DNA of 64,000 bases from Terriglobia bacterium (GTDB lineage: Bacteria; Acidobacteriota; Terriglobia; 20CM-2-55-15), in assembly GCA_963664115.2 (NCBI GenBank), contig CAXWPJ010000002.1, positions 960,001 to 1,024,000 of the forward strand, read 5' to 3'. This document shows positions 4,392 through 38,216 of the stretch, piece after piece. The notes below the pieces were generated by a model. It ran no database searches and was not told the DNA's origin. It saw only the letters and a list, made by a program, of their open reading frames with translations. The position numbers were made by a program, and so were the translations under genes. The number at the start of each line of letters is the position of its first letter. The stretch's first letter is position 1.

Positions 4392-4445
4392 TGGTACAAG
4401 TCTCCTTGTGATCTCACTTGTGATCTCGTTTGAGAAAATCGACGC

Positions 4446-7041: not shown

Positions 7042-7077
7042 CAGCTTACGCTCCCATCACCGATTTGATCGCCGAAA

Positions 7078-9683: not shown

Positions 9684-9836
9684 TTTGCAATTTCGGTGAC
9701 TAAGGATATACATTGCGAAGAAGCGCAATTGCCCGGTACCGGTCCGGCCACTCGTTTTGCCGAACCGCGGGTGCGCCCGCAGGCCGAAACTGTCAGGTAA
9801 AACTGGACCTGGACCCGTTGCCCCCAGAGGTTGATC

Positions 9837-10322: not shown

Positions 10323-10368
10323 CCGGGCTCCGATCTCAGCTCTCGATCTGAGCTATCGACCACAGGCC

Positions 10369-21090: not shown

Positions 21091-22939
21091 ACCCTGAACA
21101 AGCGTGATTGACGAGGAAATGATAGTGCAATAAGAGCGGAAGTACCCGAAATGCCCCCTCTCCGTGCGAAAAAAACCTTGAACAGATTCTTCGGAAAAGG
21201 AGGCATTTCAGATGAACGATTATACGCGCAAGAACATGAGGAACCGCAAGCGGCGAATCGAACGTCGGCTTGGGGACCGGCATTGGACGGATCAGGTAGA
21301 GCCGATGTTTTCGGCGAGCAACATTCAGTACGAGATGGGAGAGCGGACGCGGGGCACATCGGTTGGTGGTATCGGGACGATGCAACTGGTGGCGCGGCGG
21401 ACCGGGCTGATCGAAGCCATCGACAAGGGCGTGCATGTGTTGAAGCGGCACCTGCCGTATCACGAGTCGGATCACGTGCTGAACATCGCCTACAACGCCT
21501 TGAGCGGAGGAACGTGCCTGGAAGACATCGAACTGCGGCGCAACGATGCGGTGTATCTGGATGCGCTGGGAGCGCAACGGATTCCGGATCCGACGACGGC
21601 GGGAGACTTCTGCCGGAGATTCGAGGCCGACGACGTGGAGTGTCTGATGGAGGCAACCAATCAAGTCCGGCTCGGAGTCTGGCGACAGCAACCGGCGGCG
21701 TTTTTCGAAGAAGCGGTGTTGGACGCGGACGGGACACTGGCCGAAACCACGGGGGAATGCAAGCAAGGGATGGACGTGGCCTACGACGGGACGTGGGGAT
21801 ATCACCCGCTGATGATCTCGCTGGCCAACACCGCCGAACCGCTGTATCTGGTCAATCGTAGCGGCAACCGGCCGTCGCATGAAGGAGCCGCGGTCCGGTT
21901 CGACCAAGCCATCGCATTGTGCCGGCATGCGGGGTTTCGCCAGATCCTGCTGCGCGGGGACACGGACTTCAGCCAGACCCGGCATCTGGACGGATGGGAC
22001 GACCAGCAGGTGGGTTTCATATTCGGGATTGACGCGATGGCGAACCTGAAGGCCCGGGCCGATGAACTGGAGCCGCGCCAGTGGAAGCGCCTGGAACGGC
22101 CCGCGAAATACGACGTGGCGACCGAACCGCGCCAACGTCCCGACAACGTGAAGGAAGAGATCGTTCGGCAGCGCGGTTTCGACAATATCCGCTTGCAGGG
22201 TGAGGATGTGGCCGAGTTTCGGTATCGACCCGGAGCCTGCGATCGGGACTACCGTGTCGTCGTGGTGCGGAAGAATCTGTCGGTGGCCAAAGGAGAGCAG
22301 GTGTTGTTTGACGACATCCGGTACTTCTTCTACATTACCAACCGTTCGGATCCGGCCGACCAGATTGTGATGCGTGCCAATCAACGGTGCAATCAGGAGA
22401 ATCTCATTGAGCAGTTGAAGAACGGCGTTCAGGCGTTGCGGATGCCGGTCGGAGATCAGACCAGCAACTGGGCCTACATGGTGATCGCGTCACTGGCCTG
22501 GACACTGAAAGCGTGGTTTGCATTGCTGCTTCCCGAAACCGGACGTTGGGGCCAAAAATATCAGGCTGAGAAGCAAACCGTGCTGCGCATGGAGTTCAAA
22601 ACCTTCTTGAACGCTTTCATGCTTGTGCCGTGCCAACTCGTGCGCACCGGGCGGCGCATTCTGTTCCGGATCCTGGCCTGGAACCGGTGGTTGCCGGTCT
22701 TGTTCCGCGGGGTGGATGTGTTGCGTCAGCCTCTGCGATGTTGACCCGATCATGACTCTGAGCCCGGGCGATCGAGGTCCCGGTTTCTGTCAACCGTCCA
22801 ACACCAGCGAGGCTGAACTGAAACAGATTCAACAGAAACTCGATACCTGGAACAGGCCATCCGGGAACGGGATTCTATGCCTCGAATTCTATCGGCGCGA
22901 ACTGGGCCTCGGCGGACTGGTTATGCGCTTGTTTTGGGG
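21091..22939 (+). mobile_element. IS1380-family element A, copy 2 (1849 bp)
   Basis: Imperfect TIR CCCTGAACAAGCG / CCCAAAACAAGCG; CTAG at 21087-21090 and 22940-22943. Confidence 0.95.
21212..22744 (+). CDS. IS1380-family DDE transposase
   Basis: PDPTT, LDADGT, GYHPL, LRGDTDF, R..QEN.I.QLK. Confidence 0.93.
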   Translation: MNDYTRKNMRNRKRRIERRLGDRHWTDQVEPMFSASNIQYEMGERTRGTSVGGIGTMQLVARRTGLIEAIDKGVHVLKRHLPYHESDHVLNIAYNALSGGTCLEDIELRRNDAVYLDALGAQRIPDPTTAGDFCRRFEADDVECLMEATNQVRLGVWRQQPAAFFEEAVLDADGTLAETTGECKQGMDVAYDGTWGYHPLMISLANTAEPLYLVNRSGNRPSHEGAAVRFDQAIALCRHAGFRQILLRGDTDFSQTRHLDGWDDQQVGFIFGIDAMANLKARADELEPRQWKRLERPAKYDVATEPRQRPDNVKEEIVRQRGFDNIRLQGEDVAEFRYRPGACDRDYRVVVVRKNLSVAKGEQVLFDDIRYFFYITNRSDPADQIVMRANQRCNQENLIEQLKNGVQALRMPVGDQTSNWAYMVIASLAWTLKAWFALLLPETGRWGQKYQAEKQTVLRMEFKTFLNAFMLVPCQLVRTGRRILFRILAWNRWLPVLFRGVDVLRQPLRC

Positions 22940-23875: not shown

Positions 23876-26368
23876 GTGAAGCGGCAATCGGAGACGACAG
23901 TCGTTGCCGGCATACTCGACGCCTTTACGATGACCCGAACCCCGCCTCCCTCAAGCGGACCGGTCATGTTCAGTAGCGGGAGTTGCGTCCGAAGAGCGGC
24001 ATCCACCCCGGCCACGGTCAATCTCTCAAGGCCGCCAACGACTTCCAGGGTGGTCTTGAAAACTCTGACATGCGTCGTGGCTCTCGTCCTCACCCTGGGG
24101 GGCATTCGGTTTCCCCTCGCCCAGGGGCAGGGAACCTCGGCTCAGGTTTCGGGGCAGACCCCGAGTCCCATCCTGCGACGGATCGCCCCACCCCCCGTGC
24201 AGCAGGTGCCGGAGGGCAGCGCTTCGACCTCGCCCGGTGACCGCCGCTCGATGGCGGCTGTCCGGATGGCCACCGACGAATCGATCACGCTGGATGGACG
24301 TCTGGATGAAGACGTCTGGCTGCGCGCCGTACCGGCGACCAACTTCATTCAGCGCGATCCGGACAACGGCGAACCCGCCACCGAGCAGACAGAAGTGCGT
24401 TTCGTCTACGACGCCGACAAGCTCTACATGGGGGTCACGCTGTTCGATTCGGAGCCGGACAAGCTGATTTACTACCAGATGAGACGGGACGGGAACCTTC
24501 CGGCCGACGACAAGCTGCAATGGGCGATCGACACCTTCAATGATGGCCAGAGCGCCTATTGGTGGGAGATGAACCCGCTGGGTTCGATGGCCGACGCGCT
24601 GCGGGGCGCGAACAATACGAACAACCGGCGGTGGGATGGGATCTGGGACGCCCGCTCGACCCGTAGCGATATTGGATGGACCCTCGAAATCGAAGTCCCG
24701 TTTCGTACGATGAATTTCAACCCCAACAGCGAAGGGTGGGGTGTCAATTTTCAACGGGTGATCGCCCGTAAGAACGAAGTGAGCCTCTGGATGGGCTGGC
24801 TGCGCAACCAGGGCTTGAACAGGATGAGTAATGCCGGTCTGCTCACCGGCATCCAGGATGTGACCCAGGGTCGTGGCCTCGACATTAAGCCGTACCTGGT
24901 GGGCACCTCCGAGTCCTTTCCGGGTCGCGGTGACCGAGCCACCGCGAATGACGTGCAGGCCGGTGTCGATCTCTTCTACAACATCACGCCGAGCCTGCGA
25001 GCTAATCTCACAGTGAACACCGACTTTGCTCAGGCCGAGGTCGACGCGCGCCAACTCAACCTCACCCGTTTCTCGCTGCTGTTTCCGGAACAGCGTGATT
25101 TCTTCCTCGACGGCGCGCTGTTCTTCGATTTCGCGGCCGGAGATAGCCAGTCTCTGATTCCTTTTCAAAGCCGCCGGATAGGTCTCGACGAAGAGAACAG
25201 GCCGCAGCGGATCAACTTCGGCGGCAAACTGACCGGGCAGTCCGGGGCTTTCGATATCGGCGTCCTGCAGGTCCAGACCGGTGACGAAACCAAAGACGAA
25301 GAAGGCGGTTCCCTTGGAGAGGACTTCACCGTCGTGCGCATCAAGCGGCGGATGTTCCGCGAATCCTACCTGGGCGGGTTGTATACGATGCGTCACACTC
25401 GTGGCGGCGACATTGGCGACCGCCAGACGATCGGCCTCGACCTGCGGCTGGCGACATCCACCTTCCGTGGCTCCGACAACCTGAGCGCGACCGGCTATTT
25501 CCTGCACACGACAAACCCCCTCAACACCGTCGGCAAGAGCTCAGCCTTTGGCGGGGTACTCGCATATCCGAACGATCCGCTGAACCTGCAGATCGAGTAC
25601 AGGGAGATCCAGGAGAACTACGATGCAGCGATCGGATTCAATCGTCGAACCGCTTTCCGAAACATCAAACCGCAGATAAACCTCGCGCCGCGGCCGAGTC
25701 AGCATCCATGGATCCGACGGTTCAATTTCGGGACATCAATGGATGTGTTCCTCGACCCGGTCGACAACCGCTTGTTGACCCGGGAAGTCGACATCAAGGC
25801 GCTGGAGATCGAGACACACAGGCAGGACAGGATCGAGTTTCACGTCCTCCCGACCTATGAACTGCTAGATCGAGATTTCAACATAACGCCTGACGTAACG
25901 CTTCCTGCCGGCCAGGAGTACAGCTTCACCCGCTACCGCATTCAGGGACGGACGAGCAGCCGCCGCCCCGTCTCCGTGTCACCGCTGGTTGAGTGGGGCA
26001 AATTCTTCTCAGGTGACCGGTTGCGACTCAACACGACGGTCAACTACCGCGCTGCGCCCGGACAGATGTTCTCCTTCACGAGTGAGTGGAATCGCGTATC
26101 GCTGGCCCAGGGGCAGCACTACACCAAGTTGTACCGCGCGCTTGCCGAAACGCAATTCAACCCCAGGATCTCGCTCGTCAACAACGTACAGTACGACACG
26201 CAGAGCGGGGTCATCGGATGGCAGTCGCGCTTTCGGTGGATTGTGCGACCTGGCAGCGATTTCTATTTCGTCTACATCCACAACTGGCTGGACGATCCGA
26301 TGACGGGTCAGACCTACACACTGGACCGCCGACTGTCTACAAAGGTTCTTTACACCCACAGGTTCTGA
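23876..26368 (+). CDS. CBM9-like plus DUF5916-type outer-membrane beta-barrel protein (true start probably downstream)
   Basis: ITLDGRLDEDVW, WDGIW, NTDFAQAEVD, FPEQRDFFL, SRRIG, terminal Phe. Confidence 0.8.
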   Translation: MKRQSETTVVAGILDAFTMTRTPPPSSGPVMFSSGSCVRRAASTPATVNLSRPPTTSRVVLKTLTCVVALVLTLGGIRFPLAQGQGTSAQVSGQTPSPILRRIAPPPVQQVPEGSASTSPGDRRSMAAVRMATDESITLDGRLDEDVWLRAVPATNFIQRDPDNGEPATEQTEVRFVYDADKLYMGVTLFDSEPDKLIYYQMRRDGNLPADDKLQWAIDTFNDGQSAYWWEMNPLGSMADALRGANNTNNRRWDGIWDARSTRSDIGWTLEIEVPFRTMNFNPNSEGWGVNFQRVIARKNEVSLWMGWLRNQGLNRMSNAGLLTGIQDVTQGRGLDIKPYLVGTSESFPGRGDRATANDVQAGVDLFYNITPSLRANLTVNTDFAQAEVDARQLNLTRFSLLFPEQRDFFLDGALFFDFAAGDSQSLIPFQSRRIGLDEENRPQRINFGGKLTGQSGAFDIGVLQVQTGDETKDEEGGSLGEDFTVVRIKRRMFRESYLGGLYTMRHTRGGDIGDRQTIGLDLRLATSTFRGSDNLSATGYFLHTTNPLNTVGKSSAFGGVLAYPNDPLNLQIEYREIQENYDAAIGFNRRTAFRNIKPQINLAPRPSQHPWIRRFNFGTSMDVFLDPVDNRLLTREVDIKALEIETHRQDRIEFHVLPTYELLDRDFNITPDVTLPAGQEYSFTRYRIQGRTSSRRPVSVSPLVEWGKFFSGDRLRLNTTVNYRAAPGQMFSFTSEWNRVSLAQGQHYTKLYRALAETQFNPRISLVNNVQYDTQSGVIGWQSRFRWIVRPGSDFYFVYIHNWLDDPMTGQTYTLDRRLSTKVLYTHRF

Positions 26369-26647
26369 GGCCCTCGCCCGCGGTCACTGATCAATCCCGC
26401 ATCCCTAGGGTCAGGCCAGACCAGTTCGGTATCACAGGCCCACCGGGCGGGTGTCGAATGACGAATCAGCCACGAAAATTATTGATATTTAGATCCATTT
26501 CATCCTTCGAGTCATTGCTGGAATTAAGCGATCCGCGACTCAACTGCCCGCGGGTTCACCTGGCTACCACTCTGGTTCGCGGATCAGTAAAACAAGCGGG
26601 GTTTGGGGCAACGGGTGGCAAGACGCAGGGCGGGAATGTCGTAATTG

Positions 26648-26681
26648 GGGTGTTATGTCAACCCGCGCGCGGCCGCAGGCC
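26648..26681. repeat. 34-bp direct repeat, copy 1
   Basis: GGGTGTTATGTCAACCCGCGCGCGGccGCAGGCC; 32/34 identical to 29521-29554. Confidence 0.85.
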
Positions 26682-26767
26682 AGCGCGCGAACTCAACGCT
26701 CCACGAAAAGTCGCATCTCGATCTTCTTCGAGACCGGCAGGTTATTGGTGGGTGCGCTTGGGTTCAA

Positions 26768-27154
26768 TCAATTGTTCAACAGCGGAATACTCTCAGCTGG
26801 AACCGGCCGAGGCAGCGACTGTAGAAAAGCGTATATGTCGGCCAGTTCCTGATCTGTCACAACCCGGCTGGTGTAGAGCGGCATCACGCCAGCGGGCTGG
26901 CGGACATATGCGGAGAACCCCGAAAACGTATAAGGAGACGGACCGATTCTCCCGCCCGGGCCGCCGTGAGCGGCGTAGCCGTGGCATGAATAGCATCCAT
27001 AGCTGGCGAAAATCTCCTTGCCGTTTTCGGCGTCTCCGCGCGGTGCGGTGTCCGGAGCTTGCGCCGCACTCATTCCACCCAATACGGAAATCATCACTGT
27101 TGCCAGGATCAGAAAGATCGTGAAGCGCATGGCAGCGAATTCTCCTTTCTTCAT
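26768..27154 (-). CDS. Monoheme cytochrome c
   Basis: Signal peptide, CYSCH heme motif, distal Met in GVMP. Confidence 0.9.
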   Translation of the reverse strand: MKKGEFAAMRFTIFLILATVMISVLGGMSAAQAPDTAPRGDAENGKEIFASYGCYSCHGYAAHGGPGGRIGPSPYTFSGFSAYVRQPAGVMPLYTSRVVTDQELADIYAFLQSLPRPVPAESIPLLNN

Positions 27155-27157
27155 TTT

Positions 27158-29092
27158 CTACCGGGGTTGAGACACGACGTCCACCAGTGCAGTCTCACCA
27201 TTTTCGACGCGCTCCACTGCACGCCGCAAGGCCGGTCCAACTTCGCTTGGGTCGCTGATCGGTCCCTCCCCATAGAGTCCCATGCCTCGCGCCACCGTCG
27301 CGTAGTCGATGTCCGGATCGGAAATGTCGTTGCCGATCCCGGCCGTGTTAATGGCCCGCTGGCGCCAATTGGCCATGCGCTGCAGATGCATGACCTCCTG
27401 ATGATATGCCCGGTTGTTGTGCATCAGGAACAGCATCGGAATGCGGTGATGCACGGCGGTCCAGAGGGCTCCCGGCGCGCACATCAGGTCGCCGTCGGTC
27501 TGAAAGGCGACGCAAAAACGCCCGTATTTCCGGTGAGCGAGCGCGGCCCCAACGGCAATCGGCAGCCGTGCGCCTACGGCTGCAGCGCCGTTTGACCCGA
27601 CATTTTCTATCGTCTGGTGGTAATGCTCGAAATTCCACAAGGGGGGACTTCCGCCATTGACCAAAGCCCAGTCCTTGTTACGAACCACCTCCCATAACTC
27701 AGCCCACAATCGCGCAGTGCTGACTGGGCTGGCGTCCCAGCCGCTGGCCGCTTGGGTTCGCGCCCCGGCCAATGCCCTGTCCTTGGCCGCACTCAGTGTC
27801 TTTCCTCTCTCCTCAAATACCCGCCTCCGGTCACCGGTGATCAACCGTTTGCAGGCTTCAATCAACGATGGGAGAGTCGCCTCGGCGTCAGCAGCGATGG
27901 CAAGATCCACCTCCGCGTAGCGCTGGAAGTCCTGGTAGTTACTCTTAATGAACAGGTCATTTGAATCGATGCTGATCAGCTTGGTCCCAGGTTGCGTCCT
28001 TCGGCTGAAAGTCTTCTCCGGCAGATCACGCATATTGTGAACAGTGCCCCACAAATCTTCCACCTGCATGCCCAGGATCACGTCCGCCGCCCCGATTGCA
28101 CCACCTCCGCTCAGGGGATGGCGACTGGGCATATTGCGACTGTATCCCCGCACCGGCACCTGGAGCGTCTCTGCGAGTTCGACCATCAAATCCATTCCCT
28201 GCTGTGAGCGGGCCACATTTCCGCCGACGATCACGGGGTTTTCCGCCCCCACCAGCAACTGGGCCACCTCAGCCACTGCTCCCGGGTCACCGGCTGGCGG
28301 GCTTGTCCGTGTCAGCTTCGGAATATGTAAGCGGGATCGGTCCTCGATTGGAGCCTCCTGCAGGTGGCCATCCGCGACCAGTACTGTTGGCGCCGTCGGG
28401 ACCGTCATCCCAATCTTGTAAGCCCGTACCGCCGACTCGGCGAAATGTTGAAGCGAATGCGGCGTGTCATCCCACTTGATATAGTCGCGAACCATAGCTG
28501 TCGCATCCTGGACGCTGTGATTCCACTCCACGCCCGGTCGTCGGCCAGTGGCATCGAGGTGGTTTCCAAGAATGATGAACACAGGAGTGTGAGCGCAGAA
28601 GGCATGGTAGATGGTCATCGCCGCGTGCTGCAGACCGACCGTTCCGTGCGCTATGGCCAACATGGGCTTGCCTTCGACTCTGAAATACCCGTCGGCTATG
28701 GCAATCGAGGATTCCTCGTGGAGGCATGTCAACCACTCGGGAGCCTGGTTTCCCCCATAGTTGATGAATGACTCTTGCAGTCCACGGAAACTCGAGCCTG
28801 GCATCGAAGCGACATACTCAAAGCCCAGAGATTTGATGACATCCACCATGAAATCCGAACCGGGATCGTCGATCGTACGCAGAACATCGATTTGCTGAGA
28901 AACCGGTTCCGTTTCAGCCGCCAACTGTGCAGGTGATGGGGGTGGGGCCGCACCCCGCTGCAGCTGACCGGCCGGTTCAGCCTTTGCGTTCGGAGTCTCT
29001 ACAACCATGCCTGCTGCCCCAGCGGCAGCCCCAACGGCAGCGCCTTTCAGAAAGCCACGGCGATTAAGGGAGCCTTTTCTGGATTTCTCCAT
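27158..29092 (-). CDS. Thiamine-diphosphate-dependent enzyme with a twin-arginine signal
   Basis: NRRGFLK Tat motif, PGSSFRG, LHEESS (catalytic Glu), TDGDLM...HNN ThDP motif. Confidence 0.9.
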   Translation of the reverse strand: MEKSRKGSLNRRGFLKGAAVGAAAGAAGMVVETPNAKAEPAGQLQRGAAPPPSPAQLAAETEPVSQQIDVLRTIDDPGSDFMVDVIKSLGFEYVASMPGSSFRGLQESFINYGGNQAPEWLTCLHEESSIAIADGYFRVEGKPMLAIAHGTVGLQHAAMTIYHAFCAHTPVFIILGNHLDATGRRPGVEWNHSVQDATAMVRDYIKWDDTPHSLQHFAESAVRAYKIGMTVPTAPTVLVADGHLQEAPIEDRSRLHIPKLTRTSPPAGDPGAVAEVAQLLVGAENPVIVGGNVARSQQGMDLMVELAETLQVPVRGYSRNMPSRHPLSGGGAIGAADVILGMQVEDLWGTVHNMRDLPEKTFSRRTQPGTKLISIDSNDLFIKSNYQDFQRYAEVDLAIAADAEATLPSLIEACKRLITGDRRRVFEERGKTLSAAKDRALAGARTQAASGWDASPVSTARLWAELWEVVRNKDWALVNGGSPPLWNFEHYHQTIENVGSNGAAAVGARLPIAVGAALAHRKYGRFCVAFQTDGDLMCAPGALWTAVHHRIPMLFLMHNNRAYHQEVMHLQRMANWRQRAINTAGIGNDISDPDIDYATVARGMGLYGEGPISDPSEVGPALRRAVERVENGETALVDVVSQPR

Positions 29093-29520
29093 CGATCTTC
29101 TCCTTCCGAGTTTTGTCTCGCGCCTCGTATGTCTTAAGCGTCAGAGTCGCAGCCTGAGTCACAATCGCATCTTTAACAAACAAGAATGTGAGGCTGTCAA
29201 AAGCAAGATACACCCTAACCTTTAATAATGCTATTACTCTCCTACTATCCGGGTGAAGCCGCTTCACGCCCCGAAAATCGGCCGAATACAATCACGCAGG
29301 GTGTAGCCCGTCAGAGCATTTCGCACAGAATTCACTGAAAGACTAAGAAACACTTTTCTCATCGGGGGAAGACCATCCGATTGGCGTCGCTGACAAGGCT
29401 GACGCTACTCAAGATGAATTTCTTACTTCCTCCGTTCAGAAACAGAATGATTGAGTAGGAGCGGATAAGCGATATAAGCAGGGGCTGACGACTATGGCAG
29501 CGCTGACAGTGCAGTCTTAT

Positions 29521-29554
29521 GGGTGTTATGTCAACCCGCGCGCGGGGGCAGGCC
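29521..29554. repeat. 34-bp direct repeat, copy 2
   Basis: GGGTGTTATGTCAACCCGCGCGCGGggGCAGGCC. Confidence 0.85.
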
Positions 29555-29664
29555 GCCGGGGATTCCAGCAACGACACGTTCAGTGGGCCCGTCACATACA
29601 ACAGATGACGCTCGGATATTTCCGCTCGGACGCGAAGCGCACGCTCGATCCGCCCGTGTGCGGC

Positions 29665-30255
29665 TCACTGTCTGTCCGCGGAGCGCCCGATCGTACCGTA
29701 GTAGCTGCTGGCACCCACGATGTGGCCATCGATGGCGTTCAGCACGTCCTCCCGGGTCGCATTCGCTGGGAGCGTCAGCATCTGGTCGAGCGCATACAGC
29801 TTGAATTGATAGTGGAGGGCGCCTACGCCCGGCGGCGCGCACGGCGCCCGGTATCCCACAATCCCGCGGCCTTCGACCTGGCGGCTGCCATCCGGCAGCT
29901 CGGCGCCAAGCGGCACATTCTGCGGGAGTTCGGTCGTGCCGGCCGGGATGTTCCAGCGTACCCAGAAGAATGCTTGAGTCAGACTTCCGCCTTGGTGATT
30001 GTCGGGCGCGACCACCATGAACGTGAAGCTTGCCGTGTCCTCCGGCGCGAAGTTCCACTGCAGCGGGGGCGAGACGGCATTGCCGCCTTCGGCGTAACAG
30101 GTGTACGCCAATGGCAGCGGACCGGCATCGCGGAAGGCAGTGCTTGTGAGCTTCAGCCTGGGCGGCCGCGCCTCCTCCCGTTGCGCAAGGGCGGCGCTGA
30201 CCATTCCCGTCAGCAGGAGCACTGCACCAAGCAGGCCCCCGATCACGATACGCAT
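29665..30255 (-). CDS. YbhB/YbcL (PEBP) family secreted protein
   Basis: Signal peptide, LTSTAF, SPPLQW, WNIPA, Y..PCAP, HYQFKLYALD. Confidence 0.88.
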   Translation of the reverse strand: MRIVIGGLLGAVLLLTGMVSAALAQREEARPPRLKLTSTAFRDAGPLPLAYTCYAEGGNAVSPPLQWNFAPEDTASFTFMVVAPDNHQGGSLTQAFFWVRWNIPAGTTELPQNVPLGAELPDGSRQVEGRGIVGYRAPCAPPGVGALHYQFKLYALDQMLTLPANATREDVLNAIDGHIVGASSYYGTIGRSADRQ

Positions 30256-30488
30256 GTCGCCTTTGACTCCTTCAGATCGAACTGCAGACTGAGGACCCGG
30301 ATTCATCAACCGCCATCCCGGTGCCGACCGGGCACCGCACATGGCATTCGCGACGACACGTAGGCCGCGACCGCGTACGCCCAGGCAGGGATGTCCGTCC
30401 GGGCCCGAAGTACGCCACCGACCGTCACCGTCGTGCAACCCGCAGCCACCAAAGCAATGAATATGCGCATCGTTCGAATCTCGTGAGG

Positions 30489-31466
30489 CTACTTCGCGCG
30501 GGTGCTCAGTCCCTGCGCAAGGGTCTGTATCTTGAATACCGCTCCGGCACCGACTATGTAGAGGGTCCTCCTGTCCGGACCGGCAAACGCGACGTTCTGG
30601 GGCTTTCTCAGGTTGAAGCTCTCGCCTCCCCAGACGGCCGGAATGACGCCCAGATGTTCTCCCTGCGGGCTGAACACTTCGACACCCACGTTCGTCGCCA
30701 CGTAGAGGCGCCCCGCGCTGTCGACCGCCAGACCGTCCGCCCCGTTGTCCTCCGCCAGCAACCGGTCCTGGTGTCCCGGCACGGTGACGCTCTGGTACTT
30801 CGCGAACTGACGCCGATTTGCCAGCGTGCCGTCCGGCGCCACGTCGAACGCCAGCAGATACTCGCCGTCCTTGTCGTTGGCGTAGAGCGTCTTCTCGTCC
30901 GGGCTCAGCAGCACACCATTCGGACTGGCAATGCGTTGCTCGACCCTGGTCACCTGGCCGCCATCCGGGGGCAGGTAGTAGATCCCCTCCTGGTCCGTGA
31001 AGTAGACGTCGCCGCGCGCACCCACCACGAGGTCATTGAGACGACTGAACGGCTTCCCCTCGAAACTGTCCGCCAGTACGGTTTCGCTGCCCGGCGGATA
31101 CAGCACGCCGACCTTCTCGTTCCCCGGCGGGCGCTGCACGGAAATCAGGCGGCCCTGCGGGTCGAACCCCACCGCATTCGCCGCGTTGGAGGGCTCGACG
31201 AAGGTGGATACGTTGCCGTCCCCGTCGATCCTCGTAATGCGGTCGGCGTCGGAGAAGAGGAGGCTCCCGTCCGGCATGCCCACAGGACCTTCGGTCCGCC
31301 GAAATCCGGCCTGGACCACTTCGATCGGCGTGCCGCCAGCAACCACGCCGGCGATGGCCGGCGCGACGAGTTCGGTCGGCGGTGGAATCTGCGGCCGGCC
31401 CTGCGGGTGGGCAGCAAGGCCGGACAGCAGGACGAGCGACGGTATCAGTGTTAGCTTCATATCCAA
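30489..31466 (-). CDS. SMP-30/gluconolactonase family propeller
   Basis: TEGPV, LNDLVV, PNGVLLSPD, ADGLAVD; signal peptide. Confidence 0.9.
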   Translation of the reverse strand: MDMKLTLIPSLVLLSGLAAHPQGRPQIPPPTELVAPAIAGVVAGGTPIEVVQAGFRRTEGPVGMPDGSLLFSDADRITRIDGDGNVSTFVEPSNAANAVGFDPQGRLISVQRPPGNEKVGVLYPPGSETVLADSFEGKPFSRLNDLVVGARGDVYFTDQEGIYYLPPDGGQVTRVEQRIASPNGVLLSPDEKTLYANDKDGEYLLAFDVAPDGTLANRRQFAKYQSVTVPGHQDRLLAEDNGADGLAVDSAGRLYVATNVGVEVFSPQGEHLGVIPAVWGGESFNLRKPQNVAFAGPDRRTLYIVGAGAVFKIQTLAQGLSTRAK

Positions 31467-31472
31467 CTCACC

Positions 31473-31718
31473 TCAGCGGTTTCGATTCATTTCCTGGTCG
31501 AACAGCTTCTGGAATTGCTCGGGGTTCGCGTCTTTTCTCTCGATGAAGAAGTACGCGTGCGGATTTTCCCAGTCGACATCGGTCAGCGTGCCGGTGAACT
31601 CGCCGCAGTTCGATGCGTCGAACTCGGCTGCAAACGAGTGATACGCCGATGCCGGCGCGGCCGCTAACAGGCAGGCGGCCATGACGAGCACACTCAGCAG
31701 ATGCAGGGGATGTCGCAT
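31473..31718 (-). pseudogene. Truncated DUF6152-like gene fused to an unrelated tail
   Basis: Signal peptide, then YHSFAAEFD...WENPH (paralog of 38986-39429), then an abrupt switch to NPEQFQKLFDQEMNRNR. Confidence 0.65.
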
Positions 31719-31964
31719 TACGGTTGCCCCGAAGAGAATGACTTTTTGTACCCCACTTCTTAGGGGGTTGTCCATAGCTAATCTGCTGAAAGGGAAGAAC
31801 GAAATTCCCGAGTTCGTTTTCCTCGGGCCGGGCGTTCTGCTGAAGGATGGAAGCCGTACGGAGGGCAAGCCCGTCGACATGAACAATAGGCATTAAGGCT
31901 AAGGAATCGACACGTCGGATCCATGCTCTGAATTGTCATGAAATGTTGCAATCCTGTGCGGCGC

Positions 31965-31993
31965 TAAAGACTGCAGCGGACACCTTCCGATAC
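31965..31993 (+). promoter_or_regulatory. Possible sigma28-type promoter of the flagellin
   Basis: TAAA-N17-TCCGATAC versus consensus TAAA-N15-GCCGATAA; the spacer is long. Confidence 0.4.
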
Positions 31994-32008
31994 CGAGAGT
32001 GCAACAAG

Positions 32009-32087
32009 AACACGGATGTTCGGACGGGGCTACAGAACCTGTTTGGATCAAGGAGGATCACACTTTAAACATTCTAAGGAGGATCCC
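32009..32087 (+). promoter_or_regulatory. CsrA/RsmA-type binding sites in the flagellin leader
   Basis: AACA-CGGA-TGTT hairpin (ACANGGANGU), further GGA motifs and two AAGGAGGATC copies, the second forming the RBS. Confidence 0.6.
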
Positions 32088-32916
32088 ATGAGCTTTTCAT
32101 GTAGTTACGAATCTTTCGTCAATTAACGCACAGGCCACTTTGGACAGCACCCAGATGGGTTTGCAGCGGACCCTGGCGCGACTGACGTCGGGGCTGCGTA
32201 TCAACAGTGCAGCTGACGCCGCCGCCGGCCTCGCCGTGGCCAACCGGCACAAGTTGGACAACACCGGTCTGACAATCGGTATCCGGAGTGCGAACGATGC
32301 CATCAGCAAGCTGCAGATCGAAGACGGCGCACTCAACAACATTTCTTCGTCGCTGGACCGGGCCCTGACTCTGGCCAGCCAGGCCGCATCGGACACCTTT
32401 ACCGGTTCCCGGTCCACGCTGGATTCCGAGTTCCAGTCGGTTCTTTCGGAAATCACCAGAAACGCTACAGCCGCGGGTATCGAGACCGGTAACGCGAACC
32501 TGAACGCACGGTCGGTTTTCGTGGGCAACACACAAACCAGCACTACGGCAACGGTCACCTACGTATCGTTCGCTCTGACCACTGCGGCCGACGCCACGGG
32601 TCTGGGAGTCAACGCGGAGAGCATTACCAGTCAGGCGAATGCTGCCACCGCCATCTCAACTATTCAGACCGCAATCGGCACTCTCGGTACGGTACAGGGT
32701 CGAGTGGGTGCGGCAATGAACCGATTGAGTTTCGCCATCTCTCAGGCGCAGACGATGTCGGTGAGTGTTCGGGCTTCGGAATCCCGAATCCGTGATGCCA
32801 ACATTGCGGAAGAAGCGGCATCGTTGACGAAGTTCAATATCCTGACCCAGAGCGGCTTAGCCGCGCTGTCTCAGGCAAACTCGTCGTCTCAGTCCGTCCT
32901 GCAATTGCTCCGTTAG
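32088..32916 (+). CDS. fliC: Flagellin (D0/D1 only, about 275 aa) with one extra base after codon 4
   Basis: RLTSGLRINSAAD, G..GAAMNRL, ESRIRDANIAEEA, ALSQAN...VLQLLR; removing one base near 32100 gives the N-terminus MSFSVVTNLSSINAQ. Confidence 0.88.
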
Positions 32917-33214
32917 AGTGTTGTGTCGAGTTGCAGGTGTTAGAACGGCGGACTTAAGACGAGCAACCGCGCCCGACACGCAGAATCGCACGGGCCCGAG
33001 CACACGAATCCCGCGTCGGCTTTTCATGAGAGGATTCACATCCGTCTTAAACAGCCGAGGCAAATGATCAAGATTGGACTGTATGCTACGTTTGCCCTAG
33101 TTGTGAGTGCGAACCGGCTTCATATTCTGTTGGCGCCTTTCGTGTAAAGGCCGGCAATTCTGTAAGGCCTGGGACGCATTTATGATCCGGGTCATATTTT
33201 CGGGAGAGTTTTGC

Positions 33215-34225
33215 ATGACGACGAATCAGATCGGGCGAATTGACGTACACAATCACGCTGTGACTCCCGCCTACCTCGGAGCGATCCAGTCAATAGGCGG
33301 GATCATACTCACACCGGAATGGTCCGTGGATCTGGCTCTTGAATATCTCGACAACTATTCGAAATCGTCCGCCATACTCTCGATTTCCATACCAGGGGTT
33401 CACCTGGGAGACGACCGGAAGGCGCGAGTCCTCGCGCGTCGAATCAACGAAGAATTCGCCTCTTACATCTCATCGCATCCTAAGCGATTCGGGGCGTTTG
33501 CGGCCATCCCCCTGCCCGACGTGGAAGGAGCATGCCTCGAGGCAGAATATGCACTCGATACCTTGAAGCTGGACGGGGTTGGATTTTTCGCCAGCTACGA
33601 TGGCCGGTACCCGGGCTCGCCCGAATTCGATCCGATCCTGGACCTGTTGCTGAACCAGCGTTCAGCGGTAGTCTTCATCCACCCGACCAATCACCCTTCC
33701 ACAAAAATGATTCGCGAGGGTATCAGTTCCGGTATCGGCAACTTTCTCGTGGAGTTCCTGTTCGATACCACCCGCGCGGCACTGAACCTCCTTTTCTTCG
33801 ACGTCCTGGAACGGTTCCCAAACATCCGTTTCATCTTGTCCCACGGAGGCGGTACATTGCCTTATGTCGCCTGGCGTGTGGCGCACATCGCAGCCAGGAT
33901 GATGACCGAGGCCCCGTGGGATACTCAGTACCCGTCACCTTTCATGACTCGGCACGGGCAGTCGCTGACGCCTGAAATCGTTCTTACTGAGCTACGTCGA
34001 TTCTGGTACGACACGGCCATGTCTGCCGGCCGTCAAAGTTTGGGGGCCCTTAAAGAAGTCGCTGCTCCGGAGCGGATTTTGTTTGGTAGCGATTGGCCCT
34101 ATTGCCCCGAAGTCGCGACTAAGGACATGTTGGAAGCTCGCTATGACAGTCAAATGTTTAGCGACAGCGAGCAAGCGGCGATAGATCGCGGCAACGCCTT
34201 GCGTTTGTTTCCGCGATTTGCCTGA
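33215..34225 (+). CDS. Amidohydrolase_2 family (ACMSD/aromatic-acid decarboxylase-like)
   Basis: IDVHNH, FIHP, FDTTRA, SHGGGTLP, LFGSDWP. Confidence 0.88.
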   Translation: MTTNQIGRIDVHNHAVTPAYLGAIQSIGGIILTPEWSVDLALEYLDNYSKSSAILSISIPGVHLGDDRKARVLARRINEEFASYISSHPKRFGAFAAIPLPDVEGACLEAEYALDTLKLDGVGFFASYDGRYPGSPEFDPILDLLLNQRSAVVFIHPTNHPSTKMIREGISSGIGNFLVEFLFDTTRAALNLLFFDVLERFPNIRFILSHGGGTLPYVAWRVAHIAARMMTEAPWDTQYPSPFMTRHGQSLTPEIVLTELRRFWYDTAMSAGRQSLGALKEVAAPERILFGSDWPYCPEVATKDMLEARYDSQMFSDSEQAAIDRGNALRLFPRFA

Positions 34226-34426
34226 GCAGTGTCATGGAACTTTCTGTCACCTCCACTAAAGGAGAGTCCAAGTCCCACTCGCCACCCACGGACAGTGATA
34301 TTCATGTGGTGCACGGAAACCCCGGTCGAGTGTCCCCGCTTTCATTTACCTGCTTTGAAGTCCCCTCCGGGTTCGATGCGGACCCGTTCGTGAATGCTGT
34401 CTCGGCTCAGGAAGTGCGTGCGTGGC

Positions 34427-35575
34427 CTACCGGGCCACGTACTTCGTGATGCCACCGCCGGCGACCGGACGCGATCCAGGACCTTCTGCGGCGTAGATGT
34501 TGCCGTCGGCGTCGACCGCCACGCCTTCGCCGGCCACGCCCTGCAACACGCGTGTGTCGTGGGCGTGTGGCGGCACGAACGCCGTCACGCGGTCCTCGCC
34601 CGCGGGACCGATCCGCACCCCGGTGCGCCATCCCGGATGGCGCTGGGCGTCGGATTCCGAATCGATCGCGTAGAGCGTGTCGTCGTCCGTGATGAACAGC
34701 CCGCTGACCCGGCTGAACTCCAGGTACGTGTCGAGCAGGTCGCCGTCCTGGCTGAAGATTTGAATCCGATGATTGCCGCGGTCGGCCACATACAGTCGAC
34801 CTTGCGAGTCGAACTCCAGCGCGTGCGGCGTGCGGAACTGGCCTGGCCTGAAACCGAGCTCGCCCCACGCCGTAATGAAGTTGCCCTCCCTGTCAAATTT
34901 CAGGATGCGCCCCGTGGAGCCCGGAGGCGGATCCGGACTCTGGCCGCTGTGTCCGTCGGCGACGAAGATGTCACCGTTCGGCGCGGTGATCACGTCGCAC
35001 GGCTCGTTAAGCTGACCCGGACCGCTGCCCGGTTGTCCCGCCGTCCCCAGGCGCAAGAGCACCTCGCCGTCCGGGCTGAACTTGATGACCTGATGCCCCT
35101 TCGTCCCGGCCTCGTTGCCTTGGGAGTCGGTAACCCAGACGTTGCCCTCCGCATCGACGTGGAGCCCATGCGGGAGCACGAACAGCCCTGCGCCAAAGCT
35201 CGTCAACATCTCGCCGGTGTCCTTGTTGACCTTGAAGATCGGATCCCGATCGGGATTCTCCTCGCAACCGCCTGCCAGCGCCAGCCCGCCGCAGCGGTCG
35301 TAGGTCCAGATATGCCCATCGGGACCGATGTCGATGCCGGCCGTCGATCCCCACTCCCGACCCTCCGGAAGCGGTGCCCAGTTCAGCATCACTTCACCCG
35401 TGGGGTTCGGTAGCTGCCGGTCGACGAAGTCACTCGAGGTCGCGGTCGACTCGGATCCTATCCCTATCTCCGGCTCAGACGGCGGATTAGGGGCGCACGC
35501 GGCCAGCATCATGGACGCCGTGGCCAGGAGCGCCACGCCGCATCGGGTGAGGAACAACCATCGCATGTCACTCAT
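34427..35575 (-). CDS. NHL-repeat lipoprotein, peptidyl-alpha-hydroxyglycine amidating lyase (PAL)-like
   Basis: Lipobox LAAC, LPHGLHVD, IFVADGH, TPHAL, VADRGNHRIQIF. Confidence 0.85.
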   Translation of the reverse strand: MSDMRWLFLTRCGVALLATASMMLAACAPNPPSEPEIGIGSESTATSSDFVDRQLPNPTGEVMLNWAPLPEGREWGSTAGIDIGPDGHIWTYDRCGGLALAGGCEENPDRDPIFKVNKDTGEMLTSFGAGLFVLPHGLHVDAEGNVWVTDSQGNEAGTKGHQVIKFSPDGEVLLRLGTAGQPGSGPGQLNEPCDVITAPNGDIFVADGHSGQSPDPPPGSTGRILKFDREGNFITAWGELGFRPGQFRTPHALEFDSQGRLYVADRGNHRIQIFSQDGDLLDTYLEFSRVSGLFITDDDTLYAIDSESDAQRHPGWRTGVRIGPAGEDRVTAFVPPHAHDTRVLQGVAGEGVAVDADGNIYAAEGPGSRPVAGGGITKYVAR

Positions 35576-35706
35576 TTTTCTTCTCCTTCAAGTCTCGAGT
35601 CCGGCCGGACCCGGTGCACGGCGGACCGATGGGCCCGCCAGCCTTCCCTAACATCAAATCCTGAGAATTCCCGTTCGTTTCTGATTTCAATCCGCCCCCG
35701 ATTGGA

Positions 35707-37779
35707 TCAGCGCAACGCCATCGCCGCCAGACCGTTTTCGAGCTGGACGATGACGTACTGTCTTCCTTCGTGGACCCAACTCGACATGCCGTACCGAGAA
35801 ACGTCCGGTATCTCCACAGCCCCGACACGCTCCCCGGTCTGCTTGTCGATCGCGAACAAGTGCGGTGTGCCATCGCTGGTCTGGCCTGAAGCAAGGAGTA
35901 GCGTAGGCGTTGTCAACATCGCGGCCTGACCGAGGCGGCCGGGGTTCGTCGGAACATCCTCGATCCCCTGGAGCAATGGGTGATTCCGAATCAGCTCCTG
36001 TTGCTCTCGAGGCGCATCCCCGTGAGGAATCACCCAGAGATGCTCACCTGTATTCATATCGATCGCCGTGATCCGCCCGACCGGCCCCCTCCAGATTGAG
36101 AGGCCATCCAGGGTCTCCGTTCTGGGCGGGGCTTCCACGTCGATCGCTCGCGAATAGTCGGAGTGGGTAGTCCCCGTCTGCGCGGGTCCGTCCAATGGGG
36201 AGTCCGACGCCGGTGCGAGATGGATCGTGGAGCATGCGCTTTGGGAGTTGATAAAGATCACGCCCGCCACCGGATCTGCGACAGGCGGTCCGGTAATGTT
36301 CGCGCCGCCGCCCCCGCCCGGACACGCCCGGGCCGGCACTACCAGTTCCAAGTCGCCGACATAGGTCGGCGGGTCGAACAGCGGGACGAACAGGTTGTTC
36401 TCGAGCGCCACTTCCATCGCCCTGCGTTTGATCTCGGGCGTATAGTCAATGAGCTGTTCCTCGGTTCTCCCCTGGATGTCGAACGGCGCCGGTTTGGTCG
36501 GGAACGGTTGTGTACGAGAGAGCTGCTCACCGGGCACCCGGGATTGAGGTACCGGCAGTTCCTCGATGGGCCAGATCGGCTCACCGGTCTCCCGGTTGAA
36601 AGCGTAGACGAATGACTGCTTGGTGACCTGGAAGACGCCGGGGATCACACCGCCGTCGACCGCCACGTCCATCAGTATCGGCGCCGTCGGGGTGTCGTAG
36701 TTCCAGATGTCGTGGTGGACCAGCTGGAAATGCCAGGCCCGGTTACCGGTCTCGACGTCGAGGGCGATCAGGCTCGTGCCAAATAAGTTATCTCCGGGAT
36801 GGAACCCGCCATAGTAATCGATGGTGGGGCCATTCGTCGGAACGTAGACCAATCCGAGCTCCGGATCGGCCGACAGCGGCGCCCAGGAAGAGACATCGCC
36901 CGTCCACTGCCAGGCATCGTTCTCCCACGTCTCGTGTCCCAACTCACCCGGTCGCGGAATGACGTGGAACTTCCACTTGAACTGGCCGGTCCGCGCATCG
37001 AAGGCGAGGATGTCGCCGGGAACGTTCTCGATGCGGGTCTGGTTATACCCCTGCTCCGCGGAGTTCCCCACGATGACGGTGCCGTTCACAACGATGGGCG
37101 GGGAAGACGCCGTGATGTAGCCCAGCTCTAGAGGGATACCGTAGTAAGGATCGTACTCTTCGCCGTGCTCCAGCCACCGGTCCCAATCCGCGATGAGGGG
37201 TGGCAGCAGATCCACGACGCCCGTCTCCGGGAAGCCCGCCAGCGGTATCCTCGTGCCCCAGTTCTCGAGGTGCAGGCCGGTCTCGGCATCGATGGCGTGG
37301 AGGAAAAACGCGGGTGTCGCAAGAAATACGACGCCGCGGCCGTCGACCTCACCGTACGCGATTCCCTTTCCGTAACCCTTTCGCATGGAGTACTCGTAGC
37401 GCGCGGTCATCGGCTCAGAATAACTCCAGAGAAGCTCTCCCGTCTCGGGATCAAGAGCCACGACATGCCGGCGCTCGCCGGTGACCGTGATCAACTTACC
37501 GTCGACGTAGGTGGGCGTTGACCGCGGGGTGCTTGAGCCGAAACTCGCCGCGGTCCACTCCCAGACGACCTCCAGGTTCTCGAAGTTGGTGGCATCGATT
37601 TCACTCGCCTGGGTGTAGCGGGTGTGCCAGGCGTCCCCGCCGATGTAGGACCACTGCCCGTTCTCGACTCCCGGTCCCTGGGACAAGACCGCCGCAGGCG
37701 CAATAACCAGCACGCCGAGTGCCGGGATGAGCCACTTGCAGGTCACCGACCGCTGCCACCGTTTGTCCTTAATTTTCAT
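35707..37779 (-). CDS. PQQ-binding beta-propeller, quinoprotein glucose/quinate dehydrogenase-like
   Basis: Signal peptide, DPELGLVYVP, NLFGTSLIALD, WHFQLVHHDIWNYD, QPFPTKP, GRQYVIV. Confidence 0.88.
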   Translation of the reverse strand: MKIKDKRWQRSVTCKWLIPALGVLVIAPAAVLSQGPGVENGQWSYIGGDAWHTRYTQASEIDATNFENLEVVWEWTAASFGSSTPRSTPTYVDGKLITVTGERRHVVALDPETGELLWSYSEPMTARYEYSMRKGYGKGIAYGEVDGRGVVFLATPAFFLHAIDAETGLHLENWGTRIPLAGFPETGVVDLLPPLIADWDRWLEHGEEYDPYYGIPLELGYITASSPPIVVNGTVIVGNSAEQGYNQTRIENVPGDILAFDARTGQFKWKFHVIPRPGELGHETWENDAWQWTGDVSSWAPLSADPELGLVYVPTNGPTIDYYGGFHPGDNLFGTSLIALDVETGNRAWHFQLVHHDIWNYDTPTAPILMDVAVDGGVIPGVFQVTKQSFVYAFNRETGEPIWPIEELPVPQSRVPGEQLSRTQPFPTKPAPFDIQGRTEEQLIDYTPEIKRRAMEVALENNLFVPLFDPPTYVGDLELVVPARACPGGGGGANITGPPVADPVAGVIFINSQSACSTIHLAPASDSPLDGPAQTGTTHSDYSRAIDVEAPPRTETLDGLSIWRGPVGRITAIDMNTGEHLWVIPHGDAPREQQELIRNHPLLQGIEDVPTNPGRLGQAAMLTTPTLLLASGQTSDGTPHLFAIDKQTGERVGAVEIPDVSRYGMSSWVHEGRQYVIVQLENGLAAMALR

Positions 37780-38216
37780 GTAAATCCCCCAAGGGTCGAC
37801 CCGCCTCTTTCTCGAGTTGGGCGGGGGTGACCCGGACTGGCCCGAAATGATTTCAGAATTCTCCCGCTATTCTACTCAAATAGGCTTCCGGGCCGAGAAC
37901 AGAAAAATGAGTATTTCCATGGAGCCAATGGAGCCAACGATCGCGCAGTGCGGAACCCCAGCAGGTGCGACCTATAGCGGAGTTCCATCTTAGGTCTATT
38001 GGTTGCACACGCGTTTCTACCCGATGCGGAAGCGGAATCTCAGGTCCCGCCCAATTCCCAACGACCGCGCGAGGGGGCCGCGGTTCATTCCGCCGCTCGG
38101 TCGAAGAAATGGCTGACATGACGGAGCCCCGGCTGTATCCTAATCTCGGAGCCAACGAGGCGCGGCGCCCAGCTTGTGTGTGTCGGGGAGAGACTACCGG
38201 AATAGGGAGAGGATCG

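Follow-up and report, generated by a model that had tools for sequence, protein, structure and literature searches.

A Tat-leader thiamine-dependent enzyme and its neighbouring cytochrome c in a Terriglobia genome: a likely periplasmic dehydrogenase of an undescribed kind

Overview of the gene pair

The window analysed in this work is a stretch of 64,000 nucleotides from a Terriglobia bacterium (contig CAXWPJ010000002.1, positions 960,001 to 1,024,000), and the subject of this report is a pair of genes on its minus strand, one of which encodes a thiamine diphosphate (ThDP)-dependent enzyme with a predicted twin-arginine translocation (Tat) signal peptide and the other a class I cytochrome c. 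The two genes likely encode a type of periplasmic dehydrogenase that has not been described so far. That the enzyme is linked to the cytochrome by redox coupling of some form is quite probable, and the best specific explanation, to which we give a little less than an even chance, is that the pair acts in the periplasm as a thiamine-dependent 2-oxo-acid:cytochrome c oxidoreductase; electrons would pass directly to haem in one-electron steps and an acid would be the product. An earlier sequence-only reading of this DNA had proposed periplasmic oxidative decarboxylation with cytochrome c as the acceptor, and that proposal is supported by the conserved RR motif, the conserved cytochrome neighbour, the predicted complex of the two proteins and the contrast with a leaderless sister family.

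The enzyme and its export leader

The enzyme gene and the parts of its leader are located as follows.

27158..29092, minus strand: ThDP-dependent enzyme of the decarboxylase/pyruvate oxidase (POX) superfamily, 644 amino acids with its Tat leader (Pfam TPP_N/M/C; AF2 model, pLDDT 85.9; VIA-align Z 33-34)
28979..29092, minus strand: predicted Tat signal peptide, residues 1-38 (from sequence; motif in 115/120 homologs)
29045-29065, minus strand: NRRGFLK of the leader (from sequence)
28979-28987, minus strand: predicted AKA cleavage site of the leader (from sequence)
29100..29105, minus strand: Shine-Dalgarno AAGGAG of the enzyme gene (from sequence)

All three Pfam domains (TPP_enzyme_N, _M and _C) score above their cut-offs in the one chain encoded by the open reading frame (ORF) 27158-29092, and the leader ahead of them contains L9, NRRGFLK (residues 10-16), 15 uncharged residues (G17-V31) and AKA at residues 36-38. 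The earlier description of NRRGFLK, a hydrophobic stretch and an AKA site ahead of a complete ThDP body is thereby borne out, as is that of LHEE (residues 124-127) and of the variant motif TDGD...NN (residues 532-535 and 559-560). None of the NCBIfam models reached its cut-off with this protein, the best being PRK08327 with 196 of 456 bits. In the homolog search 7997 candidates were scored, all of them homologs at E 0.001 or better, and the best 120 are 63-100% identical and, where named, mostly labelled acetolactate synthase.

The motif RRxF(L/I) is present within the first 50 residues in 115 of these 120 homologs, the query counted. Of the other five, four are truncated at the N-terminus, and the fifth does contain the motif, but its start is over-long. 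It is also found in 76 of 80 metagenome loci (the best 80 of 590) and in 27 of the 28 scorable loci, out of 29, of close relatives; the lack of an RR motif in homologs, named earlier as a result that would refute the proposal, was not observed. Due to its occurrence in 115 of 120 homologs, the leader should be regarded as more than a chance feature. A stricter TatFind-like rule of our own is passed by 89 of the 120 homologs. It could be argued that the RR leader is vestigial or unused and that the enzyme is cytoplasmic, apart from the cytochrome. The h-region has little length and weak hydrophobicity, the hydrophobic-run part of the strict rule is failed by 31 of the 120 leaders, and a periplasmic enzyme would have to keep its ThDP bound. 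However, the leader is retained across Acidobacteriota and Pseudomonadota, down to about 50% identity, and it goes together with the cytochrome and with the docking residues described below. This explanation is scarcely probable at all.

The cytochrome gene and its start

The features of the second gene are given below.

26768..27154, minus strand: class I cytochrome c with one haem and a hydrophobic leader of the Sec type; the longest ORF is 128 amino acids, or 120 from Met9 (Pfam; AF2 pLDDT 87.6; class I folds, best Z 9.2)
27142..27147, minus strand: Shine-Dalgarno AAGGAG before cytochrome Met9, the probable true start at 27130 (from sequence)
26981..26995, minus strand: haem-binding CxxCH motif CYSCH, residues 54-58 (C, C and H invariant, 50/50)
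26882..26884, minus strand: Met91, predicted distal haem ligand (invariant, 50/50)

The ORF 26768-27154 contains one CxxCH and exceeds the Pfam cut-offs of both Cytochrom_C and Cytochrome_CBB3. C54, C57, H58 and M91 are invariant (50/50), and the N-terminal CxxCH, the distal Met and the class I fold that characterise class I cytochromes c are all present. The AF2 model (pLDDT 87.6) has this fold, and no close solved relative of it was found, the best Z being 9.2 and the identity at most 29%. The span 26768..29092 singled out earlier takes in both genes. A CxxCH cytochrome gene does follow the enzyme gene as had been stated, but its start 3 nt after the enzyme stop is not upheld. The ATG at that place is without a Shine-Dalgarno sequence and is out of frame in a paralog (L083), whereas Met9 (27130) is preceded by AAGGAG and is itself kept in relatives; due to this, the true start is probably Met9 at 27130, with a probable intergenic gap of 27 nt.

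At some loci the partner cytochrome is a tandem dihaem form (P0121-P0130; L035, L062, L070, L254 and L255), and the homolog P0130 carries an extra C-terminal domain of metallo-beta-lactamase-like appearance. No fusion of a ThDP enzyme with a cytochrome was seen among cytochrome homologs of 225-2000 amino acids (10 matches among 341 candidates, a weak indication); nine of these 10 long homologs are dihaem forms and one is fused to another domain.

Conservation of the pair across genomes and metagenomes

The linkage of the two genes, for which a check had been suggested earlier, is retained in most of the loci where it was scored. In 77 genome loci, mostly from Acidobacteriota with some from Pseudomonadota and drawn from the 80 top-ranking of 653 confirmed matches, a cytochrome homolog lies directly downstream in 61 and within about 3 kb in another 9, and one locus is cut. 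In the metagenome loci it is directly downstream in 51/80 and nearby in 5, with 18 loci cut by contig ends, and in the relatives' loci it is directly downstream in 25/28; all six copies in the source genome (viz. G000, the genome from which the window derives) likewise have it adjacent. In one Acidobacteriota group (L037-L039, L042, L045-L047 and L052) the cytochrome is retained on the opposite strand, 0.4-3 kb downstream.

The distribution of the family is patchy: in the phylum, 5 of 200 further genomes carry it, versus 19 of 40 relatives (1-9 matches each), and the nearest named records are Terriglobia metagenome-assembled genomes with 88-90% identity. From the window around the pair, only the two genes, short flanks and one repeat could be aligned to the loci L001 and L006. 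When distances among the enzymes are compared with those among the cytochromes, the two matrices are correlated (r 0.83), and the cytochrome of the nearest enzyme ranks first for 77 of 137 pairs; the effective depth for inter-protein coupling is about 66. However, this correlation was set aside as an indication of co-evolution, since linked genes correlate anyway. A mobile cassette was also considered and rejected, as the 34-nt direct repeat flanking the pair belongs to a repeat dispersed genome-wide. Dispersed intergenic repeats of about 100 nt and about 63 nt, which have dozens of genomic copies and resemble repetitive extragenic palindromes or miniature inverted-repeat transposable elements, occur at 26648-26681, 29461-29558 and about 29301-29363. 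Scans for promoters and terminators at the pair gave results at chance level. Contigs from RNA libraries of 4 runs (2 studies), which may hold DNA, span both genes, and two of them bridge the junction; this is only a hint of co-transcription, as such contigs cannot prove one transcript.

The predicted complex of enzyme and cytochrome

The enzyme was modelled together with haem and the cytochrome in three runs based on our own alignments, with one enzyme chain and without ThDP. This modelling, which had also been suggested earlier, yielded a predicted complex with the haem face at the active-site helix (0.83 versus 0.00). The three runs gave scores of 0.81, 0.83 and 0.84 and the best of 3 controls 0.00; in calibration, which applies only roughly here, the score mark was reached by 116 of 157 solved pairs and 2 of 215 mismatched pairs. 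The runs share at least 96% of their contacts, and the pLDDT of the partner is at least 90. The surface involved on the enzyme centres on the following feature.

27341..27403, minus strand: helix capping the active site (residues 564-584), which bears Met568 and Gln571; predicted to be the main docking surface for the cytochrome (alignment, conservation, complex model)

In full-length numbering, the docking face of the enzyme comprises residues 355-357, 442-471, 485, 564-584 and 642-644, and that of the cytochrome residues 51-66 (the CxxCH turn), 89-99 (around Met91) and the C-terminal tail, residues near CxxCH and the distal Met being the usual haem-edge face of class I cytochromes. The tightest contacts are those of Gln571, Met568 and Val567 with Gly53, Ser56, Cys57 and Pro92, and the haem-bearing face rests in the model on the helix that carries Glu566. 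The cytochrome is thus predicted to dock on the helix capping the thiamine site. As no ThDP-cytochrome complex is among the PDB matches listed, it is unlikely that the model merely recalls a solved template.

A leaderless sister family as an internal control

Among representatives of 50% clusters, searched with a profile (best 150 of 16399), we obtained, besides the query, 9 full-length proteins with the RR motif and 56 full-length proteins that are leaderless. All 10 of the Tat rows keep W452, P456, R461, E465, E566, M568 and R579. In contrast, with one N-truncated row dropped, E566 is present in 2 of 55 leaderless rows, where Asp is found in 39, and M568 likewise in 2 of 55. Of 10 well-conserved interface positions, 8 are specific to the Tat branch, and outside the interface this holds for 35 of 138 conserved positions (Fisher p 0.0008, although the positions are not independent). 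Judged from these alignments, the leaderless sister family is without those docking residues. A tree was built with FastTree from 52 rows, which included 30 of the 56 leaderless representatives together with rows from plasmids and an outgroup. In this tree, which has no firm root, the 13 Tat rows form one branch with a support of 99, lying inside an unresolved group with 34 leaderless rows.

The gene neighbourhoods differ in the same manner. In 24 of 47 plasmid places, the Tat-type loci (3/3) have the cytochrome and none has an aldehyde dehydrogenase (ALDH) gene, whereas the leaderless loci have a cytochrome homolog in 0 of 21 and ALDH within 1.5 kb in 13 of 21, of which 11 are adjacent. Several leaderless loci are found among genes annotated as aromatic-acid breakdown or alpha-hydroxy acid oxidase. 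In the Tat family, ALDH is present in 1 of 157 loci, many of which have short flanks. The simplest reading of these gene contents is that the sisters would be cytoplasmic 2-oxo-acid decarboxylases which hand their aldehyde to ALDH, and that the exported branch, working in a compartment without NAD, would use the cytochrome in place of ALDH. Based on this contrast, viz. no cytochrome, other surface residues and an ALDH neighbour in the sisters, the exported branch likely does the job of decarboxylase and dehydrogenase in one step, with haem as the putative acceptor.

The leaderless sisters (L257-L277 on plasmids; P0148-P0280) are by themselves a large family in Proteobacteria, Actinobacteria and Thermoplasmatota, which is often located beside ALDH, TTT/TRAP transporters, phthalate-type genes and alpha-hydroxy acid oxidase, and they are candidate aryl-2-oxo-acid decarboxylases.

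Active site, substrate and the question of a flavin

The AF2 model of the enzyme (residues 56-644, pLDDT 85.9) matches enzymes resembling benzoylformate decarboxylase (BFD) with Z 33-34.4 and a root-mean-square deviation of about 3 A over about 495 residues at 21-24% identity, while structures of acetohydroxyacid synthase (AHAS) and glyoxylate carboligase (GCL) tie with most of these matches, within about 1 Z. Column conservation was determined from 295 distinct family sequences (271-286 per column). The active-site residues are listed below, where comparisons with pyruvate decarboxylase (PDC) and AcHACL are included.

28793..28795, minus strand: Ser100, inferred equivalent of BFD Ser26 (278/284; NPGS loop aligned to BFD-like 4q9d)
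28715..28717, minus strand: Glu126, cofactor-activating glutamate of LHEE (284/284)
28646..28648, minus strand: His149, at the BFD His70 position (280/285; aligned)
27413..27499, minus strand: ThDP/Mg-binding motif, variant TDGD...NN, residues 532-560 (D533, G534, D535, N559 and N560 invariant)
27395-27397, minus strand: Glu566, at the position of PDC E473 and AcHACL E493 (273/275; alignment)
28517..28519, minus strand: His192, at the position of BFD L110, PDC H114 and POX Q122 (283/284; alignment and Table 1 of PMC13327070)

The GDG...NN pattern of the superfamily is recognisable, but its first Gly is replaced in this enzyme. W190, M568, R579 and R644 are nearly invariant in the family, similar to S100, H149, H192 and E566. 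Cys123 (28721-28726 together with residue 124) is present in 282/284 sequences and is followed by a second Cys in 246/284, which may form a vicinal disulfide near Glu126; however, a Cys123-Cys124 relay was rejected as essential because the query has Leu124.

Glu566 aligns without gaps (NNRAWNIE versus NNRAYHQE) with AcHACL E493, the residue that is mutated in the AcHACL E493 structures. According to PMC13327070, this Glu stands above the thiazolium on a helix at the active-site entrance, and Table 1 there shows Glu at this place only in enzymes that protonate or deprotonate C2-alpha, viz. PDC, indolepyruvate decarboxylase (IPDC), yeast 2-oxoacid decarboxylase, AcHACL, mycobacterial 2-hydroxyacyl-CoA lyase (HACL) and sulfoacetaldehyde acetyltransferase (SAAT), whereas POX, AHAS and GCL carry Ile or Val. 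One explanation to be considered is therefore that the same periplasmic complex takes an aldehyde (or a ketol or diketone that is cleaved first) and serves as a ThDP aldehyde dehydrogenase behind the pyrroloquinoline quinone (PQQ) alcohol dehydrogenases of the host. The aldehyde would add to the ylide, Glu566 would take the C2-alpha proton, haem would oxidise the carbanion and the acid would be released. This would be consistent with Glu566 and His192 being the pair that shuttles the C2-alpha proton in PDC and IPDC and with the same Glu in SAAT, an aldehyde-taking enzyme (both according to PMC13327070), with the specificity of Glu566 for the Tat branch (sisters having mostly Asp), and with the many PQQ-family genes of the source genome, one of them at 35707-37779 in the window. 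However, the BFD-type Ser100 and His149 are retained, and in BFD these residues serve 2-oxo acid handling according to section 16 of PMC13327070. Further, the sisters look like 2-oxo-acid decarboxylases feeding ALDH, the acidic residue may be inherited, and no PQQ dehydrogenase is among the most recurrent neighbour clusters. Based on these considerations, an aldehyde substrate is rather unlikely.

Since it is at the carbanion-protonating position (PMC13327070), the same Glu would also fit a periplasmic enzyme without redox function, viz. a decarboxylase or lyase with an aldehyde as its product, with the cytochrome serving some other dehydrogenase or guarding against side reactions of the carbanion with oxygen. 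The nearest solved relatives are indeed non-redox enzymes and the cytochrome is absent at some loci. However, such a role is decidedly unlikely in view of the one cytochrome per paralog, the lack of a third conserved gene able to use the cytochrome, the high-scoring predicted complex at the active-site helix, and the loss of the ALDH neighbour in the cytochrome-bearing branch.

A third possibility is a POX-like flavo-thiamine enzyme, in which a flavin adenine dinucleotide (FAD) in the middle domain would take two electrons from the carbanion and relay them singly to the cytochrome. The central Pfam domain is intact, D402 is present in 47/50 sequences, residues 355-357 of the middle domain are in contact with the modelled cytochrome, the Z values of AHAS and BFD structures are tied, and proteins exported by Tat frequently receive a cofactor before they leave the cytoplasm. 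However, of the positions involved in FAD binding, D376 at the end of the nucleotide-binding strand is kept in just 5/286 and G291 in 182/286; the flavin-free BFD group is nearest by sequence; and I480 and Q122 of POX are replaced by Glu and His. The alignments of the middle domain to POX are weak and only partial. Such an FAD relay is unlikely.

Proposed mechanism and the weight of the evidence

The cycle proposed for the 2-oxo-acid:cytochrome c oxidoreductase follows from known ThDP chemistry, and in it export, chemistry, substrate class and absence of FAD are all inferred; what is observed are the genes, their motifs and conservation, the one-to-one pairing and the contrast with the sister family, while the fold and the complex are predictions. 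The enzyme would leave the cytoplasm folded via Tat, the cytochrome c (as predicted) via Sec, and the latter would bind on the helix that caps the thiamine site. Glu126 would activate ThDP, and Ser100, His149 and His192 would hold the 2-oxo acid to which the ylide adds, upon which CO2 would depart. The C2-alpha carbanion/enamine would then pass two single electrons via a radical to the docked haem, without a flavin, and the acyl-ThDP would be hydrolysed to a carboxylic acid, with Glu566 as the likely base, while the electrons would go on to a haem-copper oxidase. The net reaction would be that of the apparent decarboxylase plus NAD aldehyde dehydrogenase of the cytoplasmic sisters. A parallel is provided by DXPS, for which it is reported (10.1101/2025.03.03.641193) that an external acceptor oxidises a ThDP carbanion and that acetyl-ThDP is hydrolysed to acetate.

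Several observations weigh against this proposal. The leader scores marginally below the Pfam TAT_signal cut-off (21.2 versus 22.7 bits), in addition to the homologous leaders that fail the strict rule, and the identity of residue 566 favours aldehyde release or aldehyde uptake, due to the restriction of Glu to enzymes that protonate or deprotonate C2-alpha. The cytochrome homolog is lacking in the fetched flank of 6 of the 77 genome loci and 6 of the 80 metagenome loci and is not directly downstream in 3 of the 28 relatives' loci, while at 8 genome loci it is on the opposite strand. Clustering of the ORFs of the 77 loci revealed no third conserved gene and no conserved pathway gene that would indicate the substrate. 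Further, the plasmid loci include some near-copies and are not mutually independent, and the complex was modelled with a single enzyme chain and no ThDP, which is outside the calibration, though the dimer is obligatory.

Paralogs in the source genome, a second pairing and surrounding genes

The source genome contains six loci of the enzyme family, of which three are intact, two are frameshifted and one is truncated behind a transposase-like ORF. Directly behind these six loci are the six best matches of the genome to the cytochrome profile (98-141 bits; the next has 64). The three broken paralogs (G000:C10:427598, C9:1123065 and C5:344054) each have an intact cytochrome gene, and in the two frameshifted ones, where one frameshift is inside the leader, the frameshifts may be sequencing errors. 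The paralogs vary in their active-site loops, which suggests that they use different substrates. The genome also has TatC, genes for cytochrome c assembly, a COX1 subunit and 22 matches to PQQ-family genes, with several genes counted twice.

A distant RR-bearing ThDP family with about 25% identity, which is outside the main group in the tree, is also present in this genome. In 7 of 28 loci of this family (3 from the source genome, one a duplicate) it adjoins a cytochrome of another type, which carries between one and three haem motifs, as in the following two cases.

G000:C9:1137356-1139979: L211, distant RR ThDP family, with a SorB-like dihaem gene upstream
G000:C2:5573-8163: L212, distant RR ThDP family, with a CxxxCH cytochrome having a helix-hairpin-helix tail downstream

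The one dihaem partner that was scanned resembles SorB, below the cut-off, and more distant members of this second family have no cytochrome within 1.5 kb. These results suggest a second origin of the ThDP-cytochrome pairing. A multi-gene block with a second-family pair is found twice on contig C2, at about 1900-11000 and about 156300-165400, in opposite orientation and near transposase genes; it may be a real duplication or an assembly artefact.

In the window itself, the neighbours at 23876-38954, viz. DUF5916/CBM9, PEBP-like, gluconolactonase-like, NHL-repeat, DUF6152 and the PQQ dehydrogenase, look mostly secreted. The ORF at 32140-32916 is flagellin-like, and a DDE transposase is located at 21212-22744.

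Significance and comparison with known systems

The characterised ThDP enzymes of this superfamily are, to our knowledge, cytoplasmic or organellar, and the oxidative ones use FAD, lipoamide or Fe-S clusters. In the literature searched, whose coverage lay mostly outside the subscription journals, we found no description of an exported ThDP enzyme with a cytochrome and no paper on ThDP radicals with cytochrome c. With slightly better than even confidence, we suggest that the pair represents a new class of respiratory dehydrogenase, in which flavin-free periplasmic ThDP enzymes would deliver single electrons from the carbanion/radical straight to a docked haem c. This class would have been derived from a cytoplasmic decarboxylase by gain of a Tat leader and exchange of ALDH for a cytochrome, would have spread into sets of paralogs that can reach six or more pairs in a genome, and would have arisen again in a second ThDP lineage with SorB-type cytochromes. 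If this is correct, thiamine joins the cofactors of periplasmic respiratory dehydrogenases, a simple system becomes available for electron transfer by ThDP radicals, a function is provided for thousands of proteins labelled acetolactate synthase in soil and marine Acidobacteriota and Proteobacteria, and NAD-free oxidation of keto acids or aldehydes may be possible for bioelectrodes. As cultured carriers exist (viz. Caballeronia zhejiangensis, Burkholderia sp. SFA1 and Novosphingobium sp. KACC 22771), the pair is directly testable.

Among known enzymes, BFD (MdlC, PDB 1BFD) and the BFD-like 4Q9D are the best matches in sequence (E 7e-24) and structure (Z 33-34, about 22% identity). Similar to BFD, the Ser26- and His70-type residues are kept (S100 and H149), with no His clearly aligned to H281 in the profile alignment, and the leaderless sisters sit beside ALDH genes in the manner of the MdlC-MdlD arrangement of the mandelate pathway. 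Unlike BFD, which is cytoplasmic and non-redox, the enzyme has a Tat leader, a dedicated cytochrome, Glu for L461 and His for L110, and it scores 124.6 bits versus a cut-off of 493 for NCBIfam NF005485. With POX of L. plantarum and the pyruvate:quinone oxidoreductase PoxB it shares the fold superfamily and, in the proposed reaction, the type of chemistry, in which a 2-oxo acid is decarboxylated oxidatively; in the case of PoxB the electrons enter respiration and the product is the free acid. However, POX and PoxB use FAD with O2 or quinone on the cytoplasmic side, and beyond the PP domain they continue into a C-terminal extension or a membrane anchor, whereas the present enzyme ends at QPR, five residues past the last strand. 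It also has Glu566 and His192 for I480 and Q122 of POX and reaches 71.5 of 742 bits with NF006377 and 59.4 of 792 with NF006591.

PDC, IPDC, HACL and SAAT are cytoplasmic enzymes without a known haem partner. The Glu above the thiazolium in these four (E473/E468/E493/E510; PMC13327070) corresponds to Glu566. Like PDC, the enzyme has His at the H114 position (His192); however, it has BFD-type Ser/His instead of the Asp-His-Asp triad of PDC and IPDC, and PDC is absent among the 60 best PDB sequence matches listed. It differs from the actinobacterial HACL by H192 for Q128 and by a score of 54 of 600 bits (NF058623), and the score for Xsc is far below the cut-off. Based on these comparisons, the enzyme is a member of the ThDP decarboxylase/POX superfamily that is outside the BFD, POX/PoxB, PDC and HACL groups.

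In its proposed chemistry the pair resembles pyruvate:ferredoxin and 2-oxoacid:ferredoxin oxidoreductases (PFOR/OFOR), which oxidise the ThDP enamine in one-electron steps through a radical and with a metal centre as acceptor; however, those enzymes have a different domain arrangement, a [4Fe-4S] acceptor, dependence on CoA and a cytoplasmic location. In its layout, a catalytic subunit encoded next to a dedicated class I cytochrome, it resembles SorAB, p-cresol methylhydroxylase (PCMH), flavocytochrome c FccAB, and MxaFI/XoxF with cytochrome cL/XoxG. The export signal on the catalytic subunit and the adjacent cytochrome predicted to bind are both found here in sequence or model, and for the cytochrome model, PCMH subunit C (Z 8.2) is one of several matches in this class whose Z values are tied and middling. 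Those systems, unlike the present one, use Mo-pterin, flavin or PQQ, and we know of no periplasmic dehydrogenase of this type that uses ThDP. By analogy, it is likely that the enzyme works like PoxB or PFOR in its chemistry and like SorAB or PCMH in its layout.

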